DNA from: Deltaproteobacteria bacterium
GTDB lineage: Bacteria > Desulfobacterota > Dissulfuribacteria > Dissulfuribacterales > QOAL01
Assembly: GCA_015489315.1 (NCBI GenBank)
Contig: WFZZ01000072.1
Span: 1-17,054 of the forward strand
Direction: 5' to 3'
Length of the DNA stretch: 17,054 bases
The translations under genes were made by a program, and so were the position numbers. Below the pieces are notes generated by a model. The model saw only the letters and a list, made by a program, of their open reading frames with translations, did no database searches and was not told the origin of the DNA. Shown here piece by piece: positions 1 through 15,188 of this stretch (the first letter of the stretch is position 1; the number at the start of each line of letters is the position of its first letter).

Positions 1-1
1 T

Positions 2-928
2 CAGAATATTTTTTAGCTTTTCCTGAGTTTCTAAAGAATTTTTAATATTATCTTGGCTTATAATTCCAAGAATACTGTTTTTCCTAATTGGAAACTTTAT
101 TTCCAGAACCTTTCCCAAATCCACTCCGAAAAGATAGGACAATTCGTCATAAAAGGCCCTGCAAAAGATACGTGCACCCAAAAGATTTGAGACTCTTTTG
201 ATAAGATCAATATCTTCCAGACCTTTTGTATTTTCATAGATTAAAAGGTCCTTTAGCCCAGAAGTATTTTTTGAAAGAAAAAGCCCCAGTTTTTTGGCCT
301 TTTCCTTTATTCCTTTAGTTTTTTGGGAAATTAAAAACCAGAAAGTTCCTCCATCCCTTCCAAGGAAATCAAGCCCCCCATTAAAAACACTTAATAGAAA
401 ATCAAAAAAGGACCTCTTCTTTTTGGATATCTTGACATCAAAAAAGGAAATTTCAACAAGATCAAGGCCATTATTTTTTTTAATAAGCCTTTTTATGTAT
501 TCAGGAATGGAATCATTTATATGTGTCTTTAAGGAATCTTCTTTTAATCGTACAAGTCTTTCTTCAAGCGCTTTTTCTAAAAGTCCAATTAGCCATTTTC
601 CCTCTTCTGCCCCAATATTTTTGGGCACACCGTTTATTTGAAATATGCCCAAAATATCTTCTTTGTCCTTTTTGCTATCTCCAAGCGGGATAAATATCTG
701 ATGATTTACTCTGTCCCAGAAGCCTTTTCCATGTAATAGGGCCCTTTTGGCCCTCTCCCTTTGCCGGGGAGAAATATCTAGTCCTTTCGGGATGATATCT
801 TCATTTTTGGATGTTATGAGCCCAAGGGAATCGATTGGGAAAATGGATTTTATAAAGGATTCAAGCTCATCTCTAAAAAGGTCAAGGTCTCTTTCTAAAA
901 TTTTTGTCTCTAGGAAAGGATAATCCAC
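2..928 (-). CDS. Hypothetical signalling-type protein, C-terminus cut by window edge (possible GAF-like N-terminal region followed by a degenerate GGDEF-like fold)
   Basis: Absent from the ORF track because it runs off the left edge. My reverse-complement translation from GTG at 928..926 gives 309 sense codons with no stop down to position 2 (VDYPFLETKILERDLDLF...ETQEKLKNIL). This GTG is the first start candidate after the in-frame TGA at 949..947 and lies 9 nt after the selA stop. The segment LDLVEISFFDVK...FLGRDGGTFWFLISQ resembles the GGDEF-domain core (LLIDIDFFK...RYGGEEFvvl) but lacks the acidic pair. The K/E/L/I-rich composition matches neighbouring genes. Confidence 0.6.
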   Translation of the reverse strand, partial: MDYPFLETKILERDLDLFRDELESFIKSIFPIDSLGLITSKNEDIIPKGLDISPRQRERAKRALLHGKGFWDRVNHQIFIPLGDSKKDKEDILGIFQINGVPKNIGAEEGKWLIGLLEKALEERLVRLKEDSLKTHINDSIPEYIKRLIKKNNGLDLVEISFFDVKISKKKRSFFDFLLSVFNGGLDFLGRDGGTFWFLISQKTKGIKEKAKKLGLFLSKNTSGLKDLLIYENTKGLEDIDLIKRVSNLLGARIFCRAFYDELSYLFGVDLGKVLEIKFPIRKNSILGIISQDNIKNSLETQEKLKNIL

Positions 929-936
929 AAAAAATA

Positions 937-2349
937 TTACCCCTTTTCAATGACCCTTTTTATAGAATCTGCGATCAACTTGAACTCCTCATCCTTTATT
1001 GTCCTGGTATCAAAAATGATACCTTCATCCTCTATCCTAGTAATAATTGGTATCCTTTCTGACCTTAGCCTTTTTTCAACAAGGGAAACCGGTAGCTCCC
1101 TTCTTGCGCTTTTGATAAAGACCGCACGAGATTTTAGAACCTGAAGGGGCATTGCGCCTCCTCCTACCCTTGAAGTGGTATCTCGATAACCAAGCTCCAG
1201 GGCTTCATCTCCCACCTTGGCCTTTATTAACCGCAAAAGCCTCCTTGCGCGCCTTTTGGTCTCTTCAAAGCTCATGGTGAGCATCCTGAGAGTTGGTATC
1301 TCTTTAAGGGCCTTTTTTGGGTCCCTGTAAATCCTTAAAACTGCCTCAAGGCCGGCAAGGGTAAGCTTGTCAATCCTAACAGCCCTGTTCATAGGATTTT
1401 TCTTTATCCTTTCAACGAGATCCCTTTTTCCGACAATTATACCGGCTTGTGGACCACCAAGCATCTTGTCTCCGCTAAAGGTCACAAGGTCCGCCCCTGC
1501 CCTTAAGGATTCCTGAACCGTTGGCTCATGAATAAAACCATAGGGGGTAAGATCAACAAGATTTCCACTGCCTAAGTCCTCAATTACAGGTATTTCATGT
1601 CTTTTTCCAAGCTCCTTTAGCTCCTTCATGGAGACTTTTTTAGTAAAGCCAACAACTGCAAAGTTACTCTGATGGACCTTCATCAAAAGCGCGGTATTTT
1701 CATTTATTGCATTTTCATAGTCCCTTAAATGGGTCCTGTTGGTTGCGCCAACTTCCCTTAAAATTGCACCACTTCTTGCCATTACGTCAGGGATGCGGAA
1801 AGAGCCGCCAATCTCCACTAGCTCCCCTCTTGAAACAATAACCTCCTTTCCCTTTGCCAGGGTTTCAAGGGTTAGAAGGACTGCTGCGGCATTATTGTTT
1901 ACCACAAGGGCCGCCTCAGCACCTGTTAGTTCGCAAAGAATCGCCTCCACATGGCTGTATCTTGAGCCACGCTTTCCTTTTTCAAGGTCATATTCAAGGT
2001 TGGAATAATTGACAGCCACATCAAAAATCTCTTCAAATATCTCCTTTGTCAAAAGGGAACGACCAAGATTGGTATGAACCACCACCCCTGTTGCATTGAC
2101 AACTGGCCTGAGCGAAGGCCTCATGGCCCTATTAAGCTCATCCTGAACCCTTTTTAAAACCCTTTCAAAGGAAAGCTCCGACTCTTTCTTTATTTCATCT
2201 GACAAAATTTTCCGGCGTAACTCATCTAAAACCCTCCGACAGACTGAAAGACGTAACCTTTGAGGGATTGTATCTGTCAAATTTTCAAGTAACTTGTCAG
2301 TCTTAGGAATCCTTTTTAAAAGTTCCTTTTTTTCTGAGGAGTTTTTCAT
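937..2349 (-). CDS. selA: L-seryl-tRNA(Sec) selenium transferase (selenocysteine synthase SelA)
   Basis: 470-aa ORF with hallmark SelA motifs: N-terminal LLKRIPKTDKLL, VVNATGVVVHTNLGRS, NLEYDLEKGKRGSR, and the PLP-lysine motif FSGDKMLGGPQAGIIVG. Confidence 0.93.
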   Translation of the reverse strand: MKNSSEKKELLKRIPKTDKLLENLTDTIPQRLRLSVCRRVLDELRRKILSDEIKKESELSFERVLKRVQDELNRAMRPSLRPVVNATGVVVHTNLGRSLLTKEIFEEIFDVAVNYSNLEYDLEKGKRGSRYSHVEAILCELTGAEAALVVNNNAAAVLLTLETLAKGKEVIVSRGELVEIGGSFRIPDVMARSGAILREVGATNRTHLRDYENAINENTALLMKVHQSNFAVVGFTKKVSMKELKELGKRHEIPVIEDLGSGNLVDLTPYGFIHEPTVQESLRAGADLVTFSGDKMLGGPQAGIIVGKRDLVERIKKNPMNRAVRIDKLTLAGLEAVLRIYRDPKKALKEIPTLRMLTMSFEETKRRARRLLRLIKAKVGDEALELGYRDTTSRVGGGAMPLQVLKSRAVFIKSARRELPVSLVEKRLRSERIPIITRIEDEGIIFDTRTIKDEEFKLIADSIKRVIEKG

Positions 2350-2821
2350 GTTAAAAGTCTATCTCCTTTGGCCTGGAAAGACAAAAGAGCCTTGGATAAA
2401 AGAAGGCTTGGAATTTTATTTAAAAAGGCTCAAAAATTACTACCAGGTTACCATAATTGAGACAAGACCTTCAAGGCAAAAGGGCAAAGACCCTGAACAA
2501 TCAATAAAAGAAGAAGGTAGATTTTTACTGGAACAGATAAAAAAGATTGGGGCCGAATGCTATGTACTTGACGTAAAGGGAAGGGAAATATCTTCGGAAG
2601 GGCTTGCCAGGCTAATAAAGGAGAAGGAGGAGACTGGTCAAAAAGGAATGGTCTTTGTTATTGGCGGGGCCTATGGCATTGATGAAGAAGTTCTAAAAAA
2701 GGCCAATAAGGCCATTTCCCTTTCCAAAATGACCTTCACCCACGAAATGGCGCGCCTAATCCTCGTTGAGCAGCTTTATAGGGCCGCCTCCATAAATGCC
2801 GGCAGCCCCTATCATCACTAG
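2348..2821 (+). CDS. rlmH: 23S rRNA (pseudouridine1915-N3)-methyltransferase RlmH (SPOUT family)
   Basis: The internal ATG at 2348 (MLKVYLLWPGKTKEPWIKEGLEFYLKRL...) gives about 157 aa, the usual RlmH length. It is preceded by GAGGAG 6 nt upstream. The C-terminus LSLSKMTFTHEMARLILVEQLYRA matches the RlmH knot motif. The 18-codon extension to 2294 in the ORF track is not RlmH-like. Confidence 0.88.
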   Translation: MLKVYLLWPGKTKEPWIKEGLEFYLKRLKNYYQVTIIETRPSRQKGKDPEQSIKEEGRFLLEQIKKIGAECYVLDVKGREISSEGLARLIKEKEETGQKGMVFVIGGAYGIDEEVLKKANKAISLSKMTFTHEMARLILVEQLYRAASINAGSPYHH

Positions 2822-2822
2822 A

Positions 2823-3050
2823 TCAATCTACTGACTCAACCGAGCTTACTTCCGGCACCTCACTCTTAAGATAGCGCTCAATACCTGCCTTTAAGGTCAT
2901 CTGGCTCATGGGGCACCCCTTACATGCCCCTGTAAGCCTTACATTTACAACCCTAGTCTCCTCATCAACATCCACAAGTTCAACATCTCCACCATCTTGC
3001 TGAAGCATTGGACGGACCTTCTCAAGGGCTTCTTTAACCTTTTCCTTCAT
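2823..3050 (-). CDS. NifU C-terminal (Nfu-type) Fe-S cluster assembly/carrier domain protein
   Basis: [30 protein letters not shown]...[25 protein letters not shown] is the classic Nfu fold with a CxxC motif. The start was moved to the ATG at 3050, which has GGAGAG 7-8 nt upstream. The longer track ORF (to 3131) would overlap thiE by 62 nt. Confidence 0.85.
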
Positions 3051-3069
3051 GTCTAGCTCTCCTTTTTCT

Positions 3070-3705
3070 TTAAAAGATACTTGAAATCTCTTTTGCTCTT
3101 TTTTGAATGTCTTTGCACCTCCAAAGACCACTTATTACAGCCACCATGTCTGCGCCTTTTTTAACAAGTAACCCTGCATTTTCACGGTTAATTCCACCAA
3201 TGGCACAGATTGGGACATTAAGCTTTCTTTTGGCCTTTTTGAGTAAATCCATCTCTGCCTTGACTGCGTCTGGCTTTGTTGGAGAAGGGAAAAATGAGCC
3301 AAAGGCCACGTAATCTGCCCCCATTTTTTCGTATTTCATGGCAAGTTCAAGCCTGTTATAACATGAGACTCCGATAATTGCTTTATTCCCCAGTTCCTTT
3401 CTAGCTTCTTTAAGGGAAATGTCATCTTTTCCAATATGAACTCCATGGGCCCCAATCCTTTTTGCAAGGTTAACCCTGTCATTGACAATGAACAAACAGT
3501 TAAATTCCTTACAAATATCTTTTAATTTCAAGGAAATAGAAATCAGCTCTTCATCCTTATGGGTTTTATCCCTTAACTGAATAATCCTGGCACCTCCCGA
3601 CAGGACCTCTTTGACTTTATCAAGGATTAAATCATAAGGGGTCAATAACTCATCTGTAATGGCATAAAGGCCCTTAAGGCTTTCATTCCTTGTATGTTTC
3701 ACCAT
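3070..3705 (-). CDS. thiE: Thiamine-phosphate synthase ThiE
   Basis: Motifs [60 protein letters not shown] and PICAIGGI. The track start at 3717 is a TTG lying inside the terminator U-tract. The ATG at 3705 (MVKHT...) is preferred, but the start is uncertain. Confidence 0.9.
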
Positions 3706-3715
3706 ATCAAAAAAC

Positions 3716-3742
3716 AAAAGGGGCCAGATTAAGGCCCCTTTT
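3716..3742 (-). terminator. Rho-independent terminator downstream of the rubredoxin gene
   Basis: The minus-strand read is AAAAGGGGCC-TTAATCT-GGCCCCTTTTGTTTTTT. This is a 6-bp GC stem extendable by A/T pairs, a 7-nt loop and a long U-run, 21 nt after the rubredoxin stop codon. Confidence 0.8.
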
Positions 3743-3762
3743 AAGATGCTCTTTAACCAAAA

Positions 3763-3930
3763 TCAATCAGCAGGATAAAAGTTTTCCTTTTCGGCTCCAC
3801 ATTTTGGGCAAACCCAATCATCTGGAAGGTCCTCAAAGGGAGTGCCTGGCTCAATTCCATGCTCAATATCACCTTCTGCTGGATCATAGATATAGCCACA
3901 AGGGCATTCCATTCTTTGCATCTTACTCAT
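3763..3930 (-). CDS. Rubredoxin (variant first Cys knuckle, CPC instead of CxxC)
   Basis: [51 protein letters not shown] aligns along its whole length with clostridial-type rubredoxin (CGYIYDP, PDDWVCPxCG). The ATG at 3930 was chosen because AAAGGAGGAAG sits 5-6 nt upstream. The track start at 3987 is a TTG that coincides with a -35-like TTGACT. Confidence 0.9.
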
Positions 3931-3958
3931 CTTTCTTCCTCCTTTTGAATTTTCACAA

Positions 3959-3987
3959 AAATTAACACATAAATCATATAAAGTCAA
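3959..3987 (-). promoter_or_regulatory. Candidate sigma70-type promoter for rubredoxin
   Basis: The minus strand reads TTGACT (3987..3982), a 17-nt spacer, then TAATTT (3964..3959). This sits about 25-30 nt upstream of the Shine-Dalgarno and ATG at 3930. Pattern match only. Confidence 0.35.
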
Positions 3988-4061
3988 TAAATAAAATAAA
4001 TTTTATCTTATTAATAAAATACATTTTAATCTGTAAGGAATCTAATAAATTACAAAAACTT

Positions 4062-4628
4062 TTACTTCCTAACCCAGTTGCCTGGAGCTTTTTCTATATA
4101 TGTGCCTGAAGGAGCACTTTCCTGCCATTTTTGGGCAAAAATTGCCTGGACCCTAGAAAGTTCTGATAAAGGGATATTAAGGGAACTGGCAACAGCCTTA
4201 TATAGGGCCATCCTGTCACTATTTTCTGCGGTTACAAGCCTTTGGACAGTGGCTTTATCCCTCAAATTAAGGCCAGAGAGGTTTTTTATTACCAAAAGCC
4301 CGTTTGCACCTTCTCCCACAATACCCCTTGACATAAAAGGAGAAAGTAATGGGAAACGATTTTTCATTCTTTCTTTTAACTGCCTGATGGTTGCATTTGA
4401 GACGGTAAGCTCATTTGCCGCATAGACATTTGATTCAAACCCAAGCCAGGAAGTTGGTTTTTCTAGCTTTTTTTCCTTACCCTGGTTCTCAGAGCCCCGA
4501 ACCTCTTTTACAATATCCTCTGCTGCCTTTTGGACCTGGGCAGCGGGGAAATAGATATTCACTGTTACACAGGCAGCCAGAAAAAAAATCACAAACGAAA
4601 CCAGATACCTAATCTCTTTTCTTTTCAT
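4062..4628 (-). CDS. DUF1318 / YdbL-like periplasmic protein in lipoprotein form (possible YnbE-YdbL fusion)
   Basis: The N-terminus MKRKEIRYLVSFVIFFLAAC carries a lipobox (LAAC). The C-terminal half, LKERMKNRFPLL...GIVGEGANGLLVIKN...LVTAENSDRMALYKAVA...IFAQKWQESAPSGTYIEKAPGNWVRK, follows the DUF1318/YdbL pattern (G-E-x-x-G-x-L, aEN.DR.aLY, G.W.RK end). Confidence 0.7.
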   Translation of the reverse strand: MKRKEIRYLVSFVIFFLAACVTVNIYFPAAQVQKAAEDIVKEVRGSENQGKEKKLEKPTSWLGFESNVYAANELTVSNATIRQLKERMKNRFPLLSPFMSRGIVGEGANGLLVIKNLSGLNLRDKATVQRLVTAENSDRMALYKAVASSLNIPLSELSRVQAIFAQKWQESAPSGTYIEKAPGNWVRK

Positions 4629-4632
4629 AACC

Positions 4633-6222
4633 TTAGTAAACCTCCATTTTGCTTTTATCAGACTCTGTTATCCTCTTTAATCTTTCAAGCATGTCTCTGA
4701 AGCTGATTTTTCCATCTGGATTCATATTAACCACATTAACCCCGCCCCAAAAGCCCCTTTTTACAAGATATTCCTTGCCGCCTTCCCTGATTAGACCATG
4801 AAGTTCAAAGACATCATTTTTTAATTTGCAGCTTATACCAATACGCTTATAGGAAAATTCCTTAAAAAACTGACCAATAAGCGACATTGAGCCCTGGCCT
4901 CCACCCAAGATGGATATATTTTCTATTGCCTTTATGCTTATTTTTTTAGGTACATTTGCTGTTTCATCTGTAAGTATCTTAAGAAAAAACTCTTCCGGCT
5001 GACTCCCGCTTATTATCAATCCCTTGATAAAACCATTTATTACACCAGTAATAAGACCAAAGCCCGTATTTGAGGTGATTTCAGAAAGATCAATATGTTT
5101 AAAAAGTATATCACAGCCAATTCTTGGAATTGCTGAAAAGGGATCCAACCATAGATTTTCTATATCAATCTTTCCATTGGCAACTTTGGCTTTTAGAGCC
5201 CCTTCAAATATTACCCGTTCCCCTTTTAGATATGCCTTTTTTATATTGCCTGAAACCTTTATACTTACAGGAAAGTCCTTAAAAACATCCTTTAAATCAA
5301 GTTCATCAAGGTGTAACCCTTCAATTTCAAGGCCCTTTTTTTCAAAAAAAAGCCTTAATTTTTTAAGAAGTAACTCTTTCTCCTTTTTTAAAAATAGGAC
5401 AACTGGCCCTACCTCAAGGTATTTTTTGCACAGACTTATGGGCACTTTATTTGATTTAAAATAGATATTTGCCCCTTCCCTCAAAAGCCTTTTTGGTAAA
5501 AATGGGGAAAGATCAAGCCTTTTCCAGTATATATTTCCATTTTCGCAGAAATCTCCTCCCAAGGGATAGGATAAATTTATGATAAGGCCTTCAAACAGAG
5601 GCCTTTTTCTAAATAAAACTTCCGAAGTCAGGAAAAGGCTGACCCTTTTAGGCATTACCTTGAGATTTATTTTCCCGCTTGGCTCAAGGTCTAATAGAAA
5701 TGGATGGGAATTGGAATAGGCATCCCTCAAAAAAACATTGTACCATGTGTTAAGATTGGCATCTAGTTGAATCTCGCCCTTAAAAAGGCGAGAAAAGCCA
5801 TTTATTTGTTTCCCATTAAAAAATATCTGCATATTATTTGCTCTTAGGTTAAAGGGTCCATGAACCTTAAGATATTTTAAAAGGATATTATCCTTGAGAT
5901 ATGTCCCCTCTGCCTCAAAGGCTCCCCTTAGGGCCTTTAACTCAAAAAACCAGGGATAGATAAAAATTGCGCCATCTTCCCACCCGGCCTTGATTTTAAA
6001 TTCGGTTTGCCCTATCGCCTTCCATCCACTTTCAAACTTCAAAAGGCCTTTTAGGTTTATGCCTTCAAAGGCATGATTTTCATCTCTTTGGCCTGAAAGA
6101 TCTCTCAAATTAAGGTCAATTTGACAATCTAGAAAAGCTGCGAAAGAAGATTGGGAGAAAATAAAGAAAAGGGACTGAATACCCAGGAAAAAAAGTAGAA
6201 AGAAAAGGGGCACTTGCCTCAC
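4633..6222 (-). CDS. Membrane-anchored YdbH-like (AsmA-like / DctA-YdbH domain) envelope protein
   Basis: 529 aa with a GTG start directly abutting the upstream stop (TAG|GTG). It has an N-terminal hydrophobic anchor (VPLFFLLFFLGIQSLFFIF) and a beta-rich repetitive body. The C-terminal segment HIDLSEITSNTGFGLITGVINGFIKGLIISG...GGKEYLVKRGFWGGVNVVNMNP is reminiscent of the YdbH C-terminal domain. Synteny with a DUF1318/YdbL gene 4 nt downstream mirrors E. coli ydbH-ynbE-ydbL. The family assignment is an inference. Confidence 0.5.
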   Translation of the reverse strand: MRQVPLFFLLFFLGIQSLFFIFSQSSFAAFLDCQIDLNLRDLSGQRDENHAFEGINLKGLLKFESGWKAIGQTEFKIKAGWEDGAIFIYPWFFELKALRGAFEAEGTYLKDNILLKYLKVHGPFNLRANNMQIFFNGKQINGFSRLFKGEIQLDANLNTWYNVFLRDAYSNSHPFLLDLEPSGKINLKVMPKRVSLFLTSEVLFRKRPLFEGLIINLSYPLGGDFCENGNIYWKRLDLSPFLPKRLLREGANIYFKSNKVPISLCKKYLEVGPVVLFLKKEKELLLKKLRLFFEKKGLEIEGLHLDELDLKDVFKDFPVSIKVSGNIKKAYLKGERVIFEGALKAKVANGKIDIENLWLDPFSAIPRIGCDILFKHIDLSEITSNTGFGLITGVINGFIKGLIISGSQPEEFFLKILTDETANVPKKISIKAIENISILGGGQGSMSLIGQFFKEFSYKRIGISCKLKNDVFELHGLIREGGKEYLVKRGFWGGVNVVNMNPDGKISFRDMLERLKRITESDKSKMEVY

Positions 6223-7506
6223 CTATTCCTTCCACCTCATTGGAAAAATCAGTCTTACCGTTGTCCCAAGCCCCTTTTGGCTTTCTATATCTATCTTCCC
6301 TTGGTGCTCAAGCATTATATGATGAACCATAATAAGGCCGACCCCTGTACCAGATGGCTTGGTGGTTACAAGTTCCTTGAAAAGACGCCTTTTAATCTTT
6401 TCATCAATTCCAATGCCGTAATCTTTTATCTCAATTGTAGGTCTTCCATTTATCCTGGCGATATTGATCTCTATAGGAGATCCTTCTATAGAGGCATCCA
6501 GGGCATTTTTTAACACATGAAGAAGTGCAACCTTCAGGGTCTTTGGATTTCCGTGAATCTTCAAAGGGCCATCATAATACTTGACCCTTAACCTTATGTT
6601 CTTTTTCTCAAAACCTGGCATCCAAGCCTCCAAGACCTCCTTAACCAGATCATTTAGGTCTAGCTCGACAAAAAACACCTCCTGTTCCTTTACCAGTCCC
6701 TCAAAATCTTTAACTATCTGTTCAAGCTTTTGTGCCTCTTGAAAGATTGCCTGGACCTTGGCCAGAAAAGGCGAATCTTTTGGCATCTTCTTTAAAAGAC
6801 GCCTTGAAAGCCCTCCTATTACAGTTGCCGGGTTTCTTATTTTATCTGCAATCCTTAAGGCAAATTCCACAACAGTCCGCTCATGAACCAGGGATTCCAT
6901 GTCCTTACTTAGTTCCAAAAGTTCTGCATTTACCTTATCAAGCTCTTTATTCTTTATGGTAAGGGTCTTTAAAAGCCTCAGGACCTCTTCGTGCTTTGCC
7001 CGAAGATTTTCCAAATAGGACTCTTCTATATCCTTAAAAAGTCTCTTTTTAATGACATCGTTTTTCTCTTCCAGGTCTTCGCAGGACTGGGTTGCACCAA
7101 AAAAAATAATTCTTATTCGATTTATTTCTCCCTTTTCCCCTTCCTCAAATTCCAAATTGTCAGTGACCTTTTTTGAAGAAGAGATAAAGACCTTGTCACT
7201 AGCTTCATTTTTAATAAATAAAAATGGGGCTTTCTCAGAAGAAAACTCTAACATGATCCCTGATTCAAATTGAGTAAGCCCAGGTATCCTCCTACAGATA
7301 ATAAAGAATGTGGCAAGTCCTCCTTGTGAACGCCTTAAAATTCTCCTTGAAATCTCAGACGAAATAAGGCCAATCTGAGATGACTTTATCTTGGAGAAGC
7401 CAAGGATATCTGAAAGGGCCTTTGCCTTTGTCCTTACCAGGGGTATATCGTTCTCTTTTTTAATGACAAGGCTTAAAACATGTATATTATGATCTATTTT
7501 TTCCAT
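6223..7506 (-). CDS. Histidine-kinase-like ATPase with degenerate RsbT-like N-domain, coiled coil, His-less DHp (H->D) and intact HATPase_c
   Basis: The C-terminus has an N-box (HVLKNALDA), G1 (KDYGIGI), F-box (LFKELVTTK) and G2 (GTGVGL). The H-box position reads FALRIADKIRNPATVIGG, versus the typical aHEIRNPLtaI. N-terminal residues 10-60 (VIKKENDIPLVRTKAKALSDILGF...ISSEISRRIL) resemble the first half of RsbT but lack the Asn and the G-boxes. Confidence 0.8.
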   Translation of the reverse strand: MEKIDHNIHVLSLVIKKENDIPLVRTKAKALSDILGFSKIKSSQIGLISSEISRRILRRSQGGLATFFIICRRIPGLTQFESGIMLEFSSEKAPFLFIKNEASDKVFISSSKKVTDNLEFEEGEKGEINRIRIIFFGATQSCEDLEEKNDVIKKRLFKDIEESYLENLRAKHEEVLRLLKTLTIKNKELDKVNAELLELSKDMESLVHERTVVEFALRIADKIRNPATVIGGLSRRLLKKMPKDSPFLAKVQAIFQEAQKLEQIVKDFEGLVKEQEVFFVELDLNDLVKEVLEAWMPGFEKKNIRLRVKYYDGPLKIHGNPKTLKVALLHVLKNALDASIEGSPIEINIARINGRPTIEIKDYGIGIDEKIKRRLFKELVTTKPSGTGVGLIMVHHIMLEHQGKIDIESQKGLGTTVRLIFPMRWKE

Positions 7507-8588
7507 TGCCAGATAAGTAAGCTTGCATCATCCGAAAACAATTGCTCTTCAGGAACTTCAAATAACATGTTAACAAGAAGAAGTGGTGAAAAATCCATCA
7601 GTTCTTTTGTAAAAATACCTGTCTCTATCCTGGGAATAATCTTTAACCCATCAGAAAAAATTATCCCCATCATATCTTTATGGGCTGAAAATCTTTTTTT
7701 AAAAATACCGTTTTTGACATTTATCTTTCCGATTACGCCTGGATTCCCAACTACAAATTCACCCTTTCCGTTCCAGCTGACAAACTGGGACACGTCACCG
7801 ATTGCATAGATATCAACTAAATTCCTTTCAAAATCAAAATGCACTAGCTGTGCCATCAATCCCCGTGTTCCAAGAAGGGCATTTCCAAGTTCAAATAGAC
7901 AGTCATTTGGGGCAACACTTGGTGAAATCCTTTCAAGAAGACCTTTGGCTTTACATAGAATTTTAGCAGCTTCTTCTCCCTTACCCAAAACATCCATTAG
8001 CATCAATCTCATATATGGATATTCATATACAATTGAAATACCATCACCACTGTATCTTCCAAGTTTATTGGGACATATCAGATAGGAAAATTTTACATGA
8101 GGGGAAATAAAGTCTTCATCTGGAGACCAGAAACAGGCACAAACCACTGTCTTATAAACTGCTTTCTTTTCTAAATTAAAGATATCAGGGCAGGGAACAT
8201 TGCCAAAATGCCCAGAACAAATAGAAAAATCATTACTGAGCCTTTTTACGCAATTAAGACCACTTCTTAGACCTTTCCTCGGAAAATAATTTAAGTCTTT
8301 ACCGTTTAAATCAAAGATACCCGGACCTTCGTCAAGGCTGGAGATACTCATGAAACACCTTTTTTCGTCTATCCTTTGTGAAAATAGCCTTATTATCCCT
8401 CCAGAAGTCTTATGATCAAGATGGTTTTGAGATAGCTCAGAAGTGCAAAGGACAATATCTTCGACCCTATCCTTGTTAAATCCTGCCAAAAGGGCAATTT
8501 CCCTTGAAACTCTCCTTGCAATTAGGACGTGGGACTCTTCATTTATCTCTATCTCTCTAAAATGAGGCTGTATCTTTTCTAAATCCAT
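7494..8588 (-). CDS. RsbT-like GHKL (anti-sigma-type Ser kinase) domain fused to a PP2C/SpoIIE-family phosphatase (RsbX-like)
   Basis: The N-terminal domain reads IEINEESHVLIARRVSREIALLAGF...CTSELSQNHLDH...GGIIRL...SSLDEGPGI...GLRSGLNCVKRLSNDFSI and parallels RsbT. The C-terminal domain has SGDGISI, LMDVLGKGEEAA, GNPGVIGK, IIFSDGL and SDDASLLIW, matching the PP2C/RsbX metal-binding Asp motifs. It overlaps the rsbT stop by 10 nt. Confidence 0.8.
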   Translation of the reverse strand: MDLEKIQPHFREIEINEESHVLIARRVSREIALLAGFNKDRVEDIVLCTSELSQNHLDHKTSGGIIRLFSQRIDEKRCFMSISSLDEGPGIFDLNGKDLNYFPRKGLRSGLNCVKRLSNDFSICSGHFGNVPCPDIFNLEKKAVYKTVVCACFWSPDEDFISPHVKFSYLICPNKLGRYSGDGISIVYEYPYMRLMLMDVLGKGEEAAKILCKAKGLLERISPSVAPNDCLFELGNALLGTRGLMAQLVHFDFERNLVDIYAIGDVSQFVSWNGKGEFVVGNPGVIGKINVKNGIFKKRFSAHKDMMGIIFSDGLKIIPRIETGIFTKELMDFSPLLLVNMLFEVPEEQLFSDDASLLIWQWKK

Positions 8589-8995
8589 TTAATGGCCTCT
8601 ATGTAAGTGCCACCTGTGATATTACTTGCTATCCGCACCTGATCTGCCAGTTTAAAGATGAGATTTAATCCCATGCCAAGTCCACCATCTTCTGAAGAGC
8701 CTGGAAGTAGTGCCTCGTCAAGATCTGAAATGCCCTTTCCCACATCTTCGCCAATTATCTTGACAACAGTCTTTCCTTCTTTGTTTAAAGCCTCTATTGT
8801 CACCCTGCCCCTTTTGCCATGTCTTAGGATATTTTTAGATATTTCATCAAGGATGGTAAGTAGCATGACCTCTTTACTATCCTTTATTTGACCTAAAAGA
8901 TTTAAGATCTTTCTTAGTTCTTTTCTGACAACTGGAATATCTAACTTGGAACGTATCAAAATTTCCTTTTTGACCGCTGGACACCTGGAATCCAT
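8579..8995 (-). CDS. rsbT: Stressosome switch Ser/Thr kinase RsbT
   Basis: MDSRCPAVKKEILIRSKLDIPVVRKELRKIL...ILDEISKNILRHGKRGRVTIEA...IIGEDVGKGISD...GGLGMGLNLIFKLADQVRIAS...GTYIEAIKW aligns end to end with B. subtilis RsbT (about 133 aa). The start was set at the ATG at 8995. The track start at 9106 would overlap rsbS by 92 nt, and that extension has no RsbT counterpart. Confidence 0.88.
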   Translation of the reverse strand: MDSRCPAVKKEILIRSKLDIPVVRKELRKILNLLGQIKDSKEVMLLTILDEISKNILRHGKRGRVTIEALNKEGKTVVKIIGEDVGKGISDLDEALLPGSSEDGGLGMGLNLIFKLADQVRIASNITGGTYIEAIKWI

Positions 8996-9014
8996 GGCCT
9001 TTTTAAAGGCCTTT

Positions 9015-9383
9015 TTATGCGCCTTTAACAATTTTATATCCAAGCCTTTGTAAGGCCTGCTCGGTATCCAGGGCAAAAAGAAGACCCTTTCCAAAAGACA
9101 TCTCAAAACTTTTTAGGGCAGCAATGGCATGGGCCCTCAGCCCAGTAATTACAATCCTTACCTTAAATAGCCTCATGGTATTGGCAAGTCTTTGGATATT
9201 TTCTGCCAAAAAGGTATCTATGACATCAACATCACCAAGATCAACTATAACTGCTTTGCTTTTTCTTTTTTTTACCTGAGAAGACAAGGCCCTTAATAGG
9301 CTCAAGATGCCCTCATCGTCTATCTCCTCCTGGATTGTAACCAGACAAATTTTTCCTAGATGAAAAATAGAATAGGGACGCAT
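9015..9383 (-). CDS. rsbS: Stressosome scaffold STAS protein RsbS
   Basis: A 122-aa single STAS domain (ICLVTIQEEIDDEGILSLL...AVIVDLGDVDVIDTFLAENIQRLANTMRLFKVRIVITGLR). The phospho-acceptor position (B. subtilis Ser59 in VVDSF) is Thr here (VIDTF). Confidence 0.85.
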   Translation of the reverse strand: MRPYSIFHLGKICLVTIQEEIDDEGILSLLRALSSQVKKRKSKAVIVDLGDVDVIDTFLAENIQRLANTMRLFKVRIVITGLRAHAIAALKSFEMSFGKGLLFALDTEQALQRLGYKIVKGA

Positions 9384-9394
9384 TATAAAGATAC

Positions 9395-10267
9395 TTATTG
9401 TTCTTCCATAAACACCGTGCTTTCCCTGTGCCTTTTTTGAAGCTTCATTAGCTTTTGGATCGCATAATGAAGGCCATCTGCCATTCGGCTTCGAACATTT
9501 ATTGTCCCAAGGTCAACTCCAAGATGTGCCATTGTAAGGGCAATTCTTGATGAAATCCCTGTAAGTATCGCCTCACTTCCCATAAGCCTTACTGCATCTA
9601 CTGTTTGAAGAAGATGATTGGCTACAGCAGTATCCACGTTTGGAACACCTGTTATATCAATTATCACAAAGGGGGCCCTTGTATGTTCAATAGTTACCAA
9701 GAGCCTCTCCATGGCCGACTGGGCCCTGTGGCTATCAAGGGTTCCAACCAAAGGTAGCGCCAAAACCCCGTCCCATACTTCTATCACTGGTGTGGAAAGC
9801 TCAAGTATCTCTTCCTGAAGATGCCTTATGTCTTCGTCACGCTTTTTCAAAAGCTCCTCTTGCTGTTTGACAATAAGGCGCTCCTTTTCAAGCCTGTCTG
9901 AAATGTCAATAAAATGCTCAACACAGCCAATAACTTCCCCTTTTAGGTTTTTTAGAGGCCTGCTGGCAAACTCAATGGGAATTTCCTTGTCTCCTACCTT
10001 TAAGGTGGTCTGGCCTTGATTGACACTGTTTTGGCTAGTGGCAACCTTGCATGTGCAATTTTCTGTCTGACACATGGGGGTGTTAAATATCTCATAACAC
10101 TTTCTGTCAAAACAATCTCCTGGGGTCCTTCCAACCATTTCTGCCCCCGCCTTATTGATAATCAGAATATTATGCTCAAGGTCTGTGACAAAGATACCGG
10201 AAGGAACCGCATTGATTATTTCAAATAAAAAACCTTCGTCTCCTTGATAATCCTTGAGATTGTTCAT
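9395..10267 (-). CDS. rsbR: RsbR-like stressosome sensor: N-terminal Cys-rich PAS domain, coiled-coil linker, C-terminal STAS
   Basis: The C-terminus reads STPVIEVWDGVLALPLVGTLDSHRAQ...VIIDITGVPNVDTAVANHLLQTVDAVRLMGSEAILTGISSRIA. This closely matches the RsbRA STAS domain (IDITGVPVVDTMVAHH), with both phospho-Thr positions conserved. The N-terminus is a PAS fold (FEIINAVPSGIFVTDLEHNILIINKAGAEMVG...IGCVEHFIDISD). The second ATG (10267) is preferred because AAGGAG directly abuts the first ATG at 10273. Confidence 0.88.
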   Translation of the reverse strand: MNNLKDYQGDEGFLFEIINAVPSGIFVTDLEHNILIINKAGAEMVGRTPGDCFDRKCYEIFNTPMCQTENCTCKVATSQNSVNQGQTTLKVGDKEIPIEFASRPLKNLKGEVIGCVEHFIDISDRLEKERLIVKQQEELLKKRDEDIRHLQEEILELSTPVIEVWDGVLALPLVGTLDSHRAQSAMERLLVTIEHTRAPFVIIDITGVPNVDTAVANHLLQTVDAVRLMGSEAILTGISSRIALTMAHLGVDLGTINVRSRMADGLHYAIQKLMKLQKRHRESTVFMEEQ

Positions 10268-10273
10268 GGCCAT

Positions 10274-10443
10274 CTCCTTTTTGGTCAGATGATTAAAAAT
10301 TTTATCAGAATTCCAAAATTATGTCTAATAACTTGGTAAAAATTTAAAGTTTTCTATATTTCTATCGATTTTTTTAATAACTCCAATTTTATGTCGATAA
10401 AAACATTAGAAATTTTGAATAGCAAAAAGGAGGAAGTGAAAAA
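10274..10443. promoter_or_regulatory. Divergent AT-rich control region between the stressosome operon and the pilin gene
   Basis: This is 170 bp of non-coding DNA between two divergent start codons. The plus-strand candidate promoter is TTGGTA (10333-10338), 16 nt, TATATT (10355-10360). Pilin SD AAGGAGG lies at 10427-10433. It also contains the tandem TTTCTAT repeat (10351-10366) and the TATCGAT / TATGTCGATA motifs. Confidence 0.4.
10390..10399 (+). promoter_or_regulatory. Copy 1 of shared 10-mer TATGTCGATA upstream of the pilin gene
   Basis: An exact 10-mer, also present at 15179-15188. It lies 45 nt upstream of the pilin ATG. A related TATGTCTAATA occurs at 10320-10330 and an inverted partial TATCGAT at 10363-10369. 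Confidence 0.3.
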
Positions 10444-11124
10444 ATGCTATTTGACTTTTATTTCGCAAAGGAAGAAGAACAGACGTCAACTAAAAAGGCC
10501 GGTTTTACATTGATTGAAATGGCAATAGTGCTTGTCATAATTGGATTAATTATTGGGGCCGTTATGAAGGGCAGGGACTTAATAAAATCTGCCCAAATAA
10601 AAAATGCATATGAGACCTTTTTTGCAGCCCATTACAAACTCATAGGTTCATACTATGACAGGACTGGGAGGATCTTAGGAGACGGAGCTATAAATGGCGG
10701 AAGTGGAAGGCCAAATGGTACAATGGATAATGTTTATCTTGGTAGTGCAGGAAACAGAAGAAGAATAGTAAGGGCACTTAGAAATGCAGGAATTGATATG
10801 TGTTCTCTAATTAAAAGTAATATCACTTCCAATGAATGTGGAAGAAATGGTGTCAACATTGGTCAGATATCACTTACTGGTGAATATCAGAAAACAACGG
10901 CCTGGGTGGGCTATTACTATGGAACCTTTAATGGCAGGACAAAAAACTATCTAAGGATTCAAAATATTCCAACAGATTTTGCAATTGCCCTTGATAAGAT
11001 GATAGATGGAGTGGCAAATTGCCAGTCAGGCTCATTTGTCGCCATAAGTGCGTGTAATAACGGACAATGGCCTGACCCAAGCTCTACTAGAATTTCTCAT
11101 GCCGCATGGCTATCTGAATTCTAA
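10444..11124 (+). CDS. Type IV pilin / pseudopilin with prepilin-type N-terminal cleavage-methylation domain (likely major pilin)
   Basis: KKAG|FTLIEMAIVLVIIGLIIGAV is the canonical class III signal (G-1, F+1, E+5). It is the first gene of the locus, has a strong SD and is followed by a terminator hairpin. There are two Cys pairs in the C-terminal half (CSLIKSNITSNEC, CQSGSFVAISAC). Confidence 0.88.
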   Translation: MLFDFYFAKEEEQTSTKKAGFTLIEMAIVLVIIGLIIGAVMKGRDLIKSAQIKNAYETFFAAHYKLIGSYYDRTGRILGDGAINGGSGRPNGTMDNVYLGSAGNRRRIVRALRNAGIDMCSLIKSNITSNECGRNGVNIGQISLTGEYQKTTAWVGYYYGTFNGRTKNYLRIQNIPTDFAIALDKMIDGVANCQSGSFVAISACNNGQWPDPSSTRISHAAWLSEF

Positions 11125-11156
11125 TTTTCATATCATCCTCCTCCTTCACCTGTTAA

Positions 11157-11194
11157 AAGGCCCACAGTCTCCCCCAACTGTGGGCCTTACTTTA
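11157..11194 (+). terminator. Rho-independent terminator/attenuator after the pilin gene
   Basis: A perfect 12-bp stem AAGGCCCACAGT (11157-11168) / ACTGTGGGCCTT (11177-11188) with an 8-nt loop CTCCCCCA, followed by ACTTTAAAAA. It lies 33 nt after the pilin stop. The T-tract is short, so partial read-through into the ATPase gene is plausible. Confidence 0.7.
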
Positions 11195-11216
11195 AAAATA
11201 CAGAATAGGCAGAATT

Positions 11217-12863
11217 ATGGTTAAAAACAGAAAACCATTAGGAGAACTTTTAAAAGAAAATGGGCTCATAAATGAGCAACAGCTTCAATTTGCATTAATT
11301 GAACAAAAGGCCTCTGGCGAAAAATTGGGGGAATGCCTTAAAAGGCTAGGCATAATAACGGATTCAGAGCTTGCCTTTGCCCTTTCCAAACAAACCGATA
11401 AACCCTTCATAGACCTTAAATCATTTACCCCAGACGAAACAGTACTGAAGATTCTACCGGCGCATCTGGCTAGGACCCATAATATTTTGCCACTTAAGAT
11501 TGAAGGTCACACCATAGAAATTGCAATTGATGATCCTTACAATCTGGAATTACAACAAATAGTCATAAGGGCTACGGGCTTAAGACCGATTTTCTTCATC
11601 GCCTCTGGCTCTGAAATAAGAAAACTTGTTGAAAGGTACTATTATCTAATTGAACATCCCGTTGACCAAGAAATTGCCAGTATAATTGACCTAGTAAGAG
11701 AACGTCCCAATGCCGATGTAGATGTCCTTAGACTTTCCAATCTTATTCTCACCTCTGCTGTCATAAGTAGAGCGACAGATATTCACATCTCTCCAAGTGA
11801 TAAGTCCAGTAGAGTCTTTTTTAGGATTGATGGCGTATTAGAGCCTCGACACATCTTTCCCATCTCTTTACATACAAAGCTCATAACCCATTTAAAGGTT
11901 GAGGCGAGAATGGATATCTCAGAGCAAAGGCGACCTCAGGACGGCAGGATAAGTTTTGAGTTTCTTGGAGATAGCTTTGATATAAGGGTATCCACTGTAA
12001 AAACAAATTTTGGCGAAAACATGGTCTTAAGGCTTTTGCCTTCAAGAGGAGAGTCTTTACTTGGTTTAGAGCAACTGGGGTTTGATGAAGATCAACTTCA
12101 TCTAGTCAACAGACTTTTTTCAAAACCCTACGGCATAGTACTTGTAACCGGCCCAACGGGAAGCGGTAAGACCACTACCCTTTACGCAGCACTTAGAAGG
12201 CAAAATGCCATTGAAAAGAACATAGTCACCGTTGAAGATCCAATTGAATACCAATTTTTAATGATTCGACAGACTCAGGTAAATGAGAGGGCGGGTTATA
12301 CCTTTGCATCAGCTATAAGGACCTTTTTAAGACAAGATCCAGATGTAATATTAGTTGGAGAAATTAGAGACAAAGAAACTGCAACTTTAGCAGTAAGGGC
12401 TGCAATTACAGGCCATTTAGTGCTTTCCACCTTGCATACCAATAGTGCTATTGGGGCCATTGCAAGACTAAAGGACCTTGGAATCTCTCCATTTCTACTT
12501 TCAACAGCCATATCAGGCATTCTCGCCCAGAGACTTGTAAGAAAACTTTGCCCACATTGCAAAATTGCTTCAAAGCCTACTGAAGATGAGGCAAATCGAT
12601 TCAATATTCCAAGGGACTCTGTAATCTATAGACCTGGCAAATGTCCCTATTGTAGAAATACAGGTTATATGGGAAGAACAGTTGTAGCTGAAATACTTTC
12701 CTTTTCAGAAGAGATGCTAAACATGGTTTCAAGGAATGAACCAATTAGCGAAATAAAGGCTCAGGCTGTAAAAGAAGGATTTACCAGTCTTAAAGAACAG
12801 GCCATAAAGAAGCTCCTTAACGGAGAGACAAGTCCAGATGAAATAAGTAGAGTGGTTGGATAA
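11217..12863 (+). CDS. GspE/PilB/MshE-family type II secretion / type IV pilus assembly ATPase
   Basis: Walker A VTGPTGSGKTTTLYA, Asp box, Walker B ILVGEIRD, His box LSTLHTN, and a tetracysteine Zn motif CPHC...CPYC. The N-terminal T2SSE_N/MshEN-like domain reads PLGELLKENGLINEQQLQFALIEQ-KASGE-KLGECLKRLGIITDSELAFALSKQ. Confidence 0.93.
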   Translation: MVKNRKPLGELLKENGLINEQQLQFALIEQKASGEKLGECLKRLGIITDSELAFALSKQTDKPFIDLKSFTPDETVLKILPAHLARTHNILPLKIEGHTIEIAIDDPYNLELQQIVIRATGLRPIFFIASGSEIRKLVERYYYLIEHPVDQEIASIIDLVRERPNADVDVLRLSNLILTSAVISRATDIHISPSDKSSRVFFRIDGVLEPRHIFPISLHTKLITHLKVEARMDISEQRRPQDGRISFEFLGDSFDIRVSTVKTNFGENMVLRLLPSRGESLLGLEQLGFDEDQLHLVNRLFSKPYGIVLVTGPTGSGKTTTLYAALRRQNAIEKNIVTVEDPIEYQFLMIRQTQVNERAGYTFASAIRTFLRQDPDVILVGEIRDKETATLAVRAAITGHLVLSTLHTNSAIGAIARLKDLGISPFLLSTAISGILAQRLVRKLCPHCKIASKPTEDEANRFNIPRDSVIYRPGKCPYCRNTGYMGRTVVAEILSFSEEMLNMVSRNEPISEIKAQAVKEGFTSLKEQAIKKLLNGETSPDEISRVVG

Positions 12864-14065
12864 TGCCAATATATCAATATGAGGCAATATCTTCTACTGG
12901 TGAAAGAATCATAGAACAAGGCGAATTTTCTTCGCCAGTTGAATTATATTCCACATTAAGAAACCAAGGGTATCTTCTGATAGACTATAAAAAAAGGTTT
13001 TTTTCAAATATCCCTTCTATTCCCAAAAAAATAAAAAGACTAGAGCTTGCTGAACTATTAAGAAATTTAGCCCTTGTAACCAGGGGAGGCATTCCCCTTG
13101 TTGATGCCTTAAAAGACATGGTCCAGTCTCCTGGGATGACTGGGCTAAGAAAGATCATTGAAAAGGTAATAAAACGCATTGAAGGCGGAGAGCTTTTTTC
13201 AGAGGCCCTTTCCCATTACAAAACTGCCTTTCCAAATGTTGTTATTATTTTGGTAAGGCTTGGAGAAGAAACAGGAAGACTTGATAAAACTCTGGAAGAT
13301 GCCGCAATCCATTTGGAAAAGGTACAAGAAATTATTGACAAAACCAAAAGAGCAATTAGTTATCCAATCTTTATTTTACTGGCAATGATTGGGGCACTGG
13401 CCTTTTGGATACTATATGTGCTTCCAAAACTCTTTGAACTTTTTAAAAGCCTGGGCTTAAAAGAATTACCTATTACCACAAAGATATTGCTTGCAACTGT
13501 AGAAATTACTAAGACCTATTGGCCTGTGTTCCCTGTACTAATTGCGATTTTTATAGTTCTTGGTTTCTTTTCCTCAAGAAACGAAAAACTCAAGTTTTTA
13601 TGGGATAATTTCTGGACCCATTTCCCAATTATTGGAAGGATACTTAAGTCATCCCAGCTTGCATTCTTTTTTGAATATCTATCTCTTCTTGCATCTTCGG
13701 GTATAGATATCATAAGAAGCCTAGAGATAATGGAAGGGGCTATAACTCACCAGGTATTAAGGCACGGGATCAGGGACATCAGGGCTACAATTGTAGGTGG
13801 CCGAAATCTTTCCGAAGCATTTAAAAAGTGTACTCTTTTTGAGCCATTTATACTCAGAATGGTGAGGGCAGGGGAAAATTCAGGGAATATGCCTGAGCAG
13901 TTAAAAATACTTTCAGACCATTACATGGAAATAGTCAATAGAATGGTTGATTCCATTGCCAAAAAGATAGAACCCATCCTGATTGGATTTGCTGGCATGA
14001 TTTTTGTTATTATAGCATTGGGTCTATTAGGACCTATTTATGACATGATGAGTAATATTAAATAG
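12863..14065 (+). CDS. GspF/PilC/MshG-family inner-membrane platform protein
   Basis: 400 aa with two internally repeated T2SSF-type cytoplasmic domains (LSEALSHYKTAFPNVVIILVRLGEETGRLDKTL and LSEAFKKCTLFEPFILRMVRAGENSGNMPEQL) and three hydrophobic spans. The start overlaps the ATPase stop (TAATG). Confidence 0.92.
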   Translation: MPIYQYEAISSTGERIIEQGEFSSPVELYSTLRNQGYLLIDYKKRFFSNIPSIPKKIKRLELAELLRNLALVTRGGIPLVDALKDMVQSPGMTGLRKIIEKVIKRIEGGELFSEALSHYKTAFPNVVIILVRLGEETGRLDKTLEDAAIHLEKVQEIIDKTKRAISYPIFILLAMIGALAFWILYVLPKLFELFKSLGLKELPITTKILLATVEITKTYWPVFPVLIAIFIVLGFFSSRNEKLKFLWDNFWTHFPIIGRILKSSQLAFFFEYLSLLASSGIDIIRSLEIMEGAITHQVLRHGIRDIRATIVGGRNLSEAFKKCTLFEPFILRMVRAGENSGNMPEQLKILSDHYMEIVNRMVDSIAKKIEPILIGFAGMIFVIIALGLLGPIYDMMSNIK

Positions 14066-14079
14066 GCCAGCAAACAGAA

Positions 14080-15141: not shown

Positions 15142-15178
15142 GAAAATTCTATTAAACACAATTAAAAAATCAACAAAA

Positions 15179-15188
15179 TATGTCGATA
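15179..15188 (+). promoter_or_regulatory. Copy 2 of shared 10-mer TATGTCGATA upstream of the PilMN-like gene
   Basis: An exact repeat of 10390-10399, located in the only other sizeable intergenic gap of the pilus locus (15142-15256), 69 nt upstream of the GTG start. Confidence 0.3.

Follow-up and report, generated by a model that had tools for sequence, protein, structure and literature searches.

What does a stressosome act on when its own operon encodes neither a sigma factor nor any other output of the familiar kinds? The question is raised by a row of seven co-directional minus-strand open reading frames (ORFs), here called g1 to g7 and spanning 10273 to 4062, in the genome of a Deltaproteobacteria bacterium (GenBank assembly GCA_015489315.1, contig WFZZ01000072.1, positions 1 to 17,054; this whole stretch of 17,054 nucleotides (nt) is referred to below as the window). 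In a stressosome, RsbR and RsbS assemble into a pseudo-icosahedral particle of about 1.8 MDa, by which RsbT is sequestered. Stressosomes beyond the Firmicutes are poorly understood, and the lineage studied here gives a compact and strongly conserved variant. A sequence-only reading of the window had proposed that its stressosome is wired directly to the envelope through the last two genes, g6 and g7. We find instead that the row is probably a fusion of two older, separately conserved units, g1-g5 and g6-g7. Within the first unit, g5 encodes a histidine kinase (HK) look-alike with Asp in place of the phospho-accepting His. We take g5, and not g6 or g7, as the module's own downstream element, since it is the invariant partner of RsbS and of an RsbR whose PAS domain carries a Cys cluster.

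We read the layout of the row directly from the sequence and recovered all seven genes with the junctions listed before. A gap of 11 nt separates g1 from g2 (TAA-11 nt-ATG), and 19 nt separate g2 from g3, given the start of g3 at ATG 8995; this start was chosen from orthologues, the mechanical ORF list opening at an upstream TTG at 9106. The g3/g4 junction is a 10-nt overlap (ATGGATTTAG) and the g4/g5 junction a 13-nt overlap (ATGGAAAAAATAG). At 6223/6222 g5 and g6 abut with 0 nt between them, TAG being followed directly by GTG, with a purine-rich stretch just upstream, and g6 and g7 are 4 nt apart. The best-scoring promoter-like site of the region stands upstream of g1; it is TAGACA-17-(TG)TAAAAT (10299..10327, minus strand), a 10/12 consensus match only, with an extended -10; an AAAGGAG ribosome-binding site lies between it and g1. 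Our scan gave no minus-strand terminator-like site between 10273 and 3743, and the first such hairpin downstream of g1 stands at 3715..3743 (minus strand; 11-bp stem with 6 GC pairs, T-run). The seven-gene row is most likely co-transcribed. The 19-nt gap before g3 is filled by a short GC hairpin, GGCCTT-TAAA-AAGGCC (8996..9011), which ends at the g3 ATG. We rejected it as a terminator, because the minus strand has no T-run after it; it might, speculatively, influence translation of g3.

The first four genes resemble the core of a known stressosome. The g1 product (9395..10273, minus strand, start at 10273 or 10267) is an RsbR-like co-antagonist with an N-terminal PAS domain (Pfam PAS_4, 49 bits) and a C-terminal STAS domain (54 bits). 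Its best match in the PDB is Vibrio vulnificus RsbR (7o0i, E 4.6e-27, across 138 residues), with which both phospho-Thr contexts, GTLDSHRAQ and VDTAVANH, align; the VGxxDSxRAQ motif is conserved. Identity of g1 between clades is 83-87%, far above that of the neighbouring genes. The PAS domain carries a Cys cluster, C-x4-C-x8-C-x4-C-x-C (10049..10114, minus strand; g1 residues 54-75, translation CFDRKCYEIFNTPMCQTENCTC), whose five Cys are invariant in 20/20 loci, covering every clade compared. By sequence, the cluster suggests a metal or Fe-S redox sensor, and its invariance points to a redox or metal signal in anaerobes. One more Cys stands further on in g1, in IGCVEH. The g2 product (9015..9383, minus strand, 122 residues) is an RsbS-like single-STAS scaffold protein (Pfam STAS, 34.5 bits), best matched in the PDB by Listeria RsbS (6qcm, E 1.1e-12), and the Thr of its VIDTF motif aligns with the RsbS phospho-Ser (IDFIDSF).

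The assignment of the third gene is looser. The g3 product (8579..8995, minus strand, 138 residues) is a small GHKL Ser/Thr kinase (HATPase_c_2, 30.2 bits at a cut-off of 27.4) with N-box, G1 and G2 motifs intact; its similarity to PDB entries is weak (SpoIIAB, E 8.5e-3). Its size, motifs and position suggest an RsbT-like protein. Thus the RsbR and RsbS identities proposed by the sequence-only reading held, while its RsbT is supported as a generic GHKL kinase. The RsbT-like::PP2C fusion that it had seen in g4 (7494..8588, minus strand) is borne out by profile matches to RsbX, MtX and RsbW. Here an RsbT/RsbW-like kinase domain (residues ~1-135) is joined to an RsbX-like PP2C domain (~165-364). 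With a three-sequence profile the PP2C domain matched Bacillus subtilis RsbX (3w40, E 4.8e-7) and Moorella MtX (3zt9, E 1.4e-5), and the N-terminus matched RsbW/Rv1364c; the single sequence reached 17.4 bits with Pfam SpoIIE, under the 25-bit cut-off. The N-terminal domain is HATPase_c_2-like with its kinase motifs intact, and the PP2C metal-binding motifs GDG, DxLGxGxEAA and DG are invariant. By its sequence, g1-g4 appears to be a Vibrio-type RsbR-RsbS-RsbT-RsbX (R-S-T-X) module.

Modules of this kind that lack sigma-B and precede signalling proteins of various types, kinases among them, have been documented (PMC9237108, PMC10014275), and for globin-coupled RsbR alone eleven downstream types have been listed (PMC9237108). 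In V. vulnificus and V. brasiliensis, rsbR-rsbS-rsbT-rsbX precede a sensor kinase, VvD1, and a regulator, VvD2 (PMC9237108, PMC10014275, PMC4976288). Our row shares with that locus the R-S-T-X order, the phosphatase directly after rsbT, the kinase-type protein next, and the absence of sigma-B, RsbU, RsbV and RsbW; V. vulnificus RsbR is also the closest match to the STAS domain of g1. Our row differs in its sensor, a Cys-rich PAS domain rather than a globin, and in its RsbX, which has an RsbT/W-like kinase domain in addition. The protein encoded next is different as well, being small (427 residues), with Asp for the phospho-His and a dead RsbT-like N-domain, and no response regulator follows it, the row being closed by two envelope genes.

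The stressosome of Moorella thermoacetica, MtR-MtS-MtT-MtX, has a diguanylate cyclase as its output (PDB 3zt9; PMC4976288), and phosphorylation of that cyclase by MtT is a precedent for RsbT acting on a downstream protein (PMC4976288). In both loci an R-S-T-X module directly precedes the gene for a non-sigma output, and among the structural relatives of the g4 phosphatase domain MtX ranks second; unlike Moorella with its GGDEF output, the window has neither GGDEF nor EAL. With the RsbRST-RsbU-RsbV-RsbW-SigB-RsbX system of B. subtilis and Listeria our row shares the RsbR and RsbS STAS domains with Thr and Ser/Thr phospho-positions, the small GHKL kinase and the PP2C feedback phosphatase, but an RsbU_N-type target, a partner switch and a sigma factor are all absent here. 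Pfam and NCBIfam scans found no receiver, sigma-factor, RsbU, RsbV, RsbW or GGDEF domain in any ORF of the window, and a domain scan found no EAL domain in it. The row is indeed without sigma factor, partner switch, response regulator and GGDEF protein, as first described, and no Response_reg domain was found in the ORFs of the window, nor within the corresponding block of seven genes at related loci. Set against these systems, the Cys-rich PAS sensor, the kinase-phosphatase fusion and the existence of clades that dispense with RsbT and RsbX (see below) are new.

The gene that follows the module encodes a pseudo-histidine kinase of 427 residues (g5; 6223..7506, minus strand), with a degenerate RsbT-like N-domain, a long coiled coil, a DHp domain with Asp for His, and a CA domain. 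Pfam gave 69 bits with HATPase_c and 23 bits, below cut-off, with HisKA. The H-box equivalent is IADKIRNP (6829..6852, minus strand; Asp221 codon at 6844-6846). When ThkA was aligned with g5, 'vaHEIRNP' fell on 'iaDKIRNP', so that Asp occupies the position of the phospho-accepting His, and the protein agrees with the His-less HK-like ATPase described before. The substitution is no peculiarity of the window: Asp was found at this position in 61/62 g5 homologues, down to 33% identity. Since Asp stands in place of His, g5 cannot carry out His-Asp phosphotransfer.

We then compared the conservation of g5 across 36 aligned sequences. In all of them D221, R224, N225 and P226 are invariant, as are E51 and R54 of the N-domain. 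The phosphatase-motif Asn (H+4) and the RNP motif are thus kept, whereas the ATP-binding motifs decay: only 22/36 sequences retain the N-box Asn, and the same number the G2 box, the motifs being degenerate in 14/36. The CA domain of the window's own g5 is intact, with NALDAS, DYGIG and GTGVGL present. These patterns place the conserved function of g5 in its DHp and N-domain surfaces and not in catalysis. Over its N-terminal 140 residues g5 aligns with g3 and the g4 kinase domain, and many g5 homologues have a precomputed HATPase_c_2 match there, but N-box Asn, G1 and G2 are missing from this domain in every family member. An AlphaFold2 (AF2) model of g5 (predicted local distance difference test score, pLDDT, 80) shows an alpha/beta N-domain, one long helix that contains D221, another DHp helix and the CA domain; its top fold match is ZraS (1e-15), and DivL and RetS are also matched. 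The DHp-CA region is closest to the NtrB-type kinases AtoS, ZraS and ThkA.

DivL of Caulobacter, with Tyr for His, binds the regulator DivK~P, and RetS of Pseudomonas binds the kinase GacS. Like these two, g5 retains the HK fold and has lost canonical autophosphorylation; it differs from them in the Asp at the site, the RsbT-like N-domain and the link to STAS genes, and orthology at the sequence level is absent. A conserved Asp-for-His pseudo-kinase with a pseudo-RsbT domain is new, and a pseudo-kinase that carries a dead copy of RsbT suggests a concrete, testable docking mechanism. The family is small: an exhaustive search of 1.84 billion representatives gave only ~20 clusters with full-length similarity to g5 at E <= 1e-30. 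A word-index homologue search with the DHp-CA region alone returned 6 proteins and was uninformative. One full-length relative, P0135, bears His (VAHEIRNP), and STAS genes are absent from the 900 nt upstream of it on a short contig of 4 kb. The Asp form is taken as derived, because this His-bearing full-length relative exists without a visible stressosome context.

The same type of substitution was also seen elsewhere. An L(K/R)(I/V)ADR(I/V)RNP motif, together with a CA domain, is found in proteins whose inputs are Tll0287-like, receiver or PAS/SSF domains and which have no STAS neighbours. Asp-for-His H-box proteins (L[KR][IV]ADR[IV]RNP..IGG) stand in metagenome contigs L061-L074, for example at L066:7164-8723, L067:7737-8867 and L074:5790-8810. 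From sequence alone, the Asp-type DHp may mark a broader group of HK-like signalling proteins that has yet to be described.

The distribution of the genes was followed in two collections. A scan with a g4 alignment, using one genome per species, gave 10 loci, and the g1-g7 order was present in 10/10 of these species-representative genomes with g4, one locus being cut by a contig end inside g6. A metagenome scan with a g5 alignment gave 54 loci, and in the clade with high g5 scores g6-g7 followed g5 in 7/7 contigs that were long enough; the 10 genomes and the 7 contigs overlap partly as assemblies. The seven-gene loci are labelled as Deltaproteobacteria, Desulfobacterales or Thermodesulfatator metagenome-assembled genomes. 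The adjacency, for which a survey of gene neighbourhoods had been suggested, is therefore not limited to one genome. As all seven genes recur in an unchanged order in every related genome found, the seven-gene array is not a product of chance. Within this clade the g4 proteins have diverged to 36-41% identity, and the flanks of the block vary between subclades, those of loci L013-L018 differing from the window's.

Outside the seven-gene clade the two units come apart. In L019 (Dissulfurimicrobium) and L023 we found pilR-pilS-R-S-T-X-g5 without g6 or g7. In L021, L024 and L042 the module is reduced to R-S-X-g5, the stand-alone RsbT being missing, and L021 and L024 have no g6 or g7. In L020, L056 and L059 only R-S-g5 is left, with RsbT and RsbX both missing and again no g6 or g7. 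An R-S-(T)-(X)-g5 array without adjoining g6/g7 was seen in every more distant clade examined, and g5 was present at every locus carrying the PAS-Cys RsbR and RsbS. In the clades short of RsbT or RsbX, the ATP-binding motifs of g5 are degenerate and the second RsbR phospho-site has changed from Thr to Ala, Glu or Ser. Conversely, L006 and L007 carry the g6-g7 pair without any stressosome gene. In L035, pilR-pilS are followed further on by R-S-X-g5, a multihaem cytochrome gene on the opposite strand, and then g6-g7; in L006, pyrB-pyrC-pilR-pilS are followed by two opposite-strand genes, including a cytochrome gene, and g6-g7. In both loci a multihaem cytochrome gene directly precedes g6. The pyrB-pyrC-pilR-pilS synteny recurs upstream of the stressosome module, or in L006 of g6-g7 (L019, L021, L023, L035, L006).

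This neighbourhood raises the possibility that the output is a two-component or pilus pathway. In that case g5, a His-less paralogue of NtrB/PilS-type kinases, would serve as a stressosome-controlled phosphatase, sink or heterodimer partner, and its target would be a sigma-54 response regulator such as PilR, or the kinase of that regulator, in the manner of DivL and RetS. The pilR-pilS genes stand immediately upstream of the module and co-directional with it in L019, L021, L023 and L035, and L041 and L042 have a PilS-like ORF upstream. The kinship of the g5 DHp-CA region with AtoS, ZraS and ThkA would fit, as would the structural matches to DivL and RetS and the persistence of the phosphatase-motif Asn and RNP while ATP binding decays. 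In the window, L009, L010 and L012, moreover, a type IV pilus-like cluster, which includes an MshEN ATPase, is divergent from g1. But pilRS and pilus genes are absent within 8-10 kb in L013-L018 and are absent beside the distant clades L046-L060. The intergenic region between g1 and the pilin gene has no sigma-54 promoter match, and matches over the whole window are near chance. Finally, the adjacency may be plain ancestral synteny, since pyrB-pyrC-pilR-pilS precede g6-g7 in L006 too. We hold this explanation to be rather improbable.

The junctions were compared across loci. The g3/g4 (-10) and g4/g5 (-13) overlaps are identical in all of them, and g6 and g7 always lie -1 to +4 nt apart. Only the g5/g6 junction is variable, ranging from a 22-nt overlap, seen in loci with the long form of g6 described below, up to +83 nt in loci with the short form. 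One could regard g1-g5 and g6-g7 as chance neighbours, that is, two independent co-oriented units of which the second is served by an internal promoter in the 3' end of g5. The looseness of the junction agrees with this, both units are distributed independently elsewhere, and a promoter-like site lies inside g5 at 6461-6434. That site, however, is an ordinary 9/12 match at background frequency, and promoter-like matches within the row as a whole are at background too (20 vs 16.6 +/- 4.1 in shuffles). The linkage also survives rearrangements of the flanks, and g5 and g6 abut in the window and overlap by 22 nt in the long-form loci. Mere chance is a very unlikely account.

What, then, are the two genes that close the row? 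The g6 product (4633..6222, minus strand, 529 residues) is a membrane-anchored all-beta protein, a short form of a family of ~840 residues. Residues 40-528 align to 344-837 of an 838-residue orthologue, so that g6 corresponds to the C-terminal ~490 residues of the ~840-residue orthologue with an N-terminal membrane helix of its own. Short forms of ~530-625 residues occur in the window, L010, L012, L014 and L018, and long forms of ~840 residues in L013 and L015-L017 (for example, L005:10001-12517 compared with window 4633-6222); the two differ by ~300 N-terminal residues, and both have the N-terminal membrane helix. The AF2 model of g6 (pLDDT 84.9) has a helix at residues 3-22 followed by beta strands. 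The part before the membrane helix that would face the cytoplasm is only ~2-8 residues long, and g1-g5 lack membrane segments, as judged by inspection.

The name of g6 is less secure than its shape. The sequence-only reading had called it YdbH-like, and this could not be upheld directly: g6 has no Pfam or NCBIfam match of its own, its hidden Markov model (HMM) does not match E. coli YdbH, and hhalign gave the family a probability of 0.9% against that protein. In a family of 54 members, only some of the long relatives have weak sub-threshold matches (DUF748 in 9/54, YdbH-like in 5, YhdP in 4, AsmA in 2), so that any tie to YdbH is transitive. Foldseek against the PDB gave only insignificant beta-barrel matches (best E 0.018; TamAB 25th at E 0.27). 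The contig collection has no exact entry for g6, and P0001, 95% identical to it, stood in for it. By sequence, the label 'AsmA-like' appears reasonable, and 'YdbH-like' is a lead that draws most of its support from the YdbL-type gene beside it, g7.

That neighbour is well identified. The g7 product (4062..4628, minus strand) is a predicted lipoprotein in which an invariant N-terminal segment precedes a C-terminal DUF1318 (YdbL-like) domain (64.2 bits, cut-off 27); its HMM matches E. coli YdbL with E 5e-10, and both proteins end in G-x-WVRK, which bears out the YdbL-like gene named at the end of the row. In 11 loci neither the lipobox LAAC nor the stretch CVTVNIYFPAA varies. All relatives share the first 25 mature residues (CVTVNIYFPAAEV.QAAEDI) unchanged, and residues 20-45 (CVTVNIYFPAAEV.QAAEDI..DVRG) are invariant even at distant loci with the g6-g7 pair alone. 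In E. coli, ydbH-ynbE-ydbL encode an intermembrane lipid bridge (PMC11126948, PMC13464000). The pair resembles that operon in having a large membrane-anchored beta-rich protein, a 4-nt gap and a DUF1318 protein, and the C-domain of g7 is homologous to YdbL. It differs in that g6 has no detectable similarity to YdbH and is shorter (529 vs 879 residues), and in that no ynbE gene is present in the row, no ynbE-like gene lying in the 4-nt gap between g6 and g7. Unlike YdbL, g7 is itself a predicted lipoprotein with a conserved N-terminal extension of 90 residues that does not resemble YnbE: hhalign gave 1.2%, with no likeness beyond the lipobox. A YnbE-YdbL fusion thus finds no support in the sequence, although the invariant N-terminal segment might replace YnbE despite the absence of similarity.

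It could still be that g6-g7 are the stressosome's actual output, in that stress sensed by RsbR and relayed by RsbT, g4 and g5 alters either the level of an intermembrane lipid bridge or its activity. The seven-gene order is intact in all genomes and contigs of the clade, the block holds together while both flanks change, and no other output-type gene is found in the row. The 22-nt overlap of g5 and g6 in long-form loci and their abutment in the window point the same way, and so does co-divergence, the pairwise identities of g6 and g7 tracking those of g5 with r = 0.95 and 0.97, L035 included. Yet g6/g7 do not adjoin the module in any of the more distant clades, the pair exists alone in L006 and L007, an opposite-strand gene separates the blocks in L035, and the identity of g6 with YdbH is not demonstrable. 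It is difficult to picture a direct wire between the proteins, because g6 offers few cytoplasmic residues and g1-g5 are without membrane segments. We consider this reading unlikely, and of similar standing to the pilus-pathway reading. Still somewhat less likely is its more specific form, in which the signal passes through the His-less kinase look-alike to a bridge of AsmA-like and YdbL-like proteins in the same operon, and not to a transcription factor or second-messenger enzyme. The 'direct wiring' first proposed thus finds no support as a claim about signalling, given the modules without g6/g7, the solitary pairs, the intervening gene of L035 and the variable g5/g6 junction.

We favour the fusion of two older units. 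The Cys-rich PAS-RsbR and RsbS would form a STAS scaffold, and RsbT together with the RsbT::RsbX kinase-phosphatase fusion would set its phosphorylation state. The g5 protein would be a dimeric HK look-alike and the dedicated downstream partner of the module, its N-domain, the dead RsbT copy, most likely docking on the STAS scaffold or competing there with RsbT. Output would most likely run via g5, through protein-protein interaction or through phosphatase activity or sequestration at the DHp surface, on a partner encoded elsewhere; the DHp may act on this partner as a phosphatase, a sink or a heterodimer partner, for which DivL and RetS are functional analogies only. The second unit would consist of an inner-membrane-anchored, beta-rich AsmA-like protein and a lipoprotein with a YdbL-type domain. 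An ancestral neighbourhood may have held pilRS, the stressosome module, a cytochrome gene and the envelope pair, of which different lineages shed different parts. In the window's clade the intervening gene would have been lost, leaving one co-directional, probably co-transcribed row. On present evidence, g6-g7 are co-inherited and probably co-expressed cargo of the module, and coupling to the envelope would lie at the level of shared expression and inheritance, not of a proven signalling wire.

Several points weigh against this explanation. The retention of g6-g7 behind g5, despite the divergence of g4 to 36-41% and the change of flanks, exceeds what neutral synteny easily gives, and such strictness may reflect real functional coupling. 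With its CA domain intact, the g5 of the window could conceivably be a real kinase, for example on Ser/Thr of the STAS proteins. By sequence g3 is a GHKL Ser kinase only in the generic sense, its PDB similarity being weak. Finally, the row may or may not contain an internal promoter, promoter-like matches in it being no commoner than in shuffles.

The contact between an RsbT and a downstream kinase has been considered before. The authors of the Vibrio work proposed a transient contact between RsbT and the kinase, and the link between the two has resisted demonstration (PMC9237108). In the library searched, we found nothing relevant on stressosomes together with a pseudokinase or with Desulfobacterota, and likewise nothing relevant on stressosomes together with YdbH, AsmA-like proteins or DUF1318. 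The clade-specific operonic fusion of a stressosome module to an AsmA-like/DUF1318 pair is new, and it is the only case that we found of such a pair behind a sensory module. If a signal from the module does reach the lipid bridge, a sensory input dedicated to bridge-type lipid transport towards the outer membrane would have been described for the first time, and a functional link would offer an entry point to the regulation of such transport.

The remainder of the window holds genes outside the row. The type IV pilus or type II secretion system (T2SS)-like cluster that is divergent from g1 (10444-16747, plus strand) encodes an N_methyl pilin-like protein, an MshEN-domain T2SSE ATPase, a T2SSF platform protein, an AAA_22 protein and a 496-residue protein without family match. 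It lies beside the module in L009, L010 and L012, which belong to the window's subclade, and not in L013-L018. On the other side, 131 nt downstream of g7 and on the same strand, a rubredoxin gene (3763..3930, minus strand; 55 residues, Pfam Rubredoxin 79.8 bits) stands with a promoter-like site of its own (4029-4000) ahead of it and the terminator hairpin at 3715..3743 behind it; it is also found in L001. An Rfam scan of the whole window gave no match, and a thiamine pyrophosphate (TPP) riboswitch considered before thiE was dropped in view of that empty scan. Between the rubredoxin gene and a gene for the selenocysteine synthase SelA (937-2349, minus strand; 543 bits) lie rlmH, a NifU-like gene and thiE. 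The presence of the SelA gene indicates that the organism uses selenocysteine.

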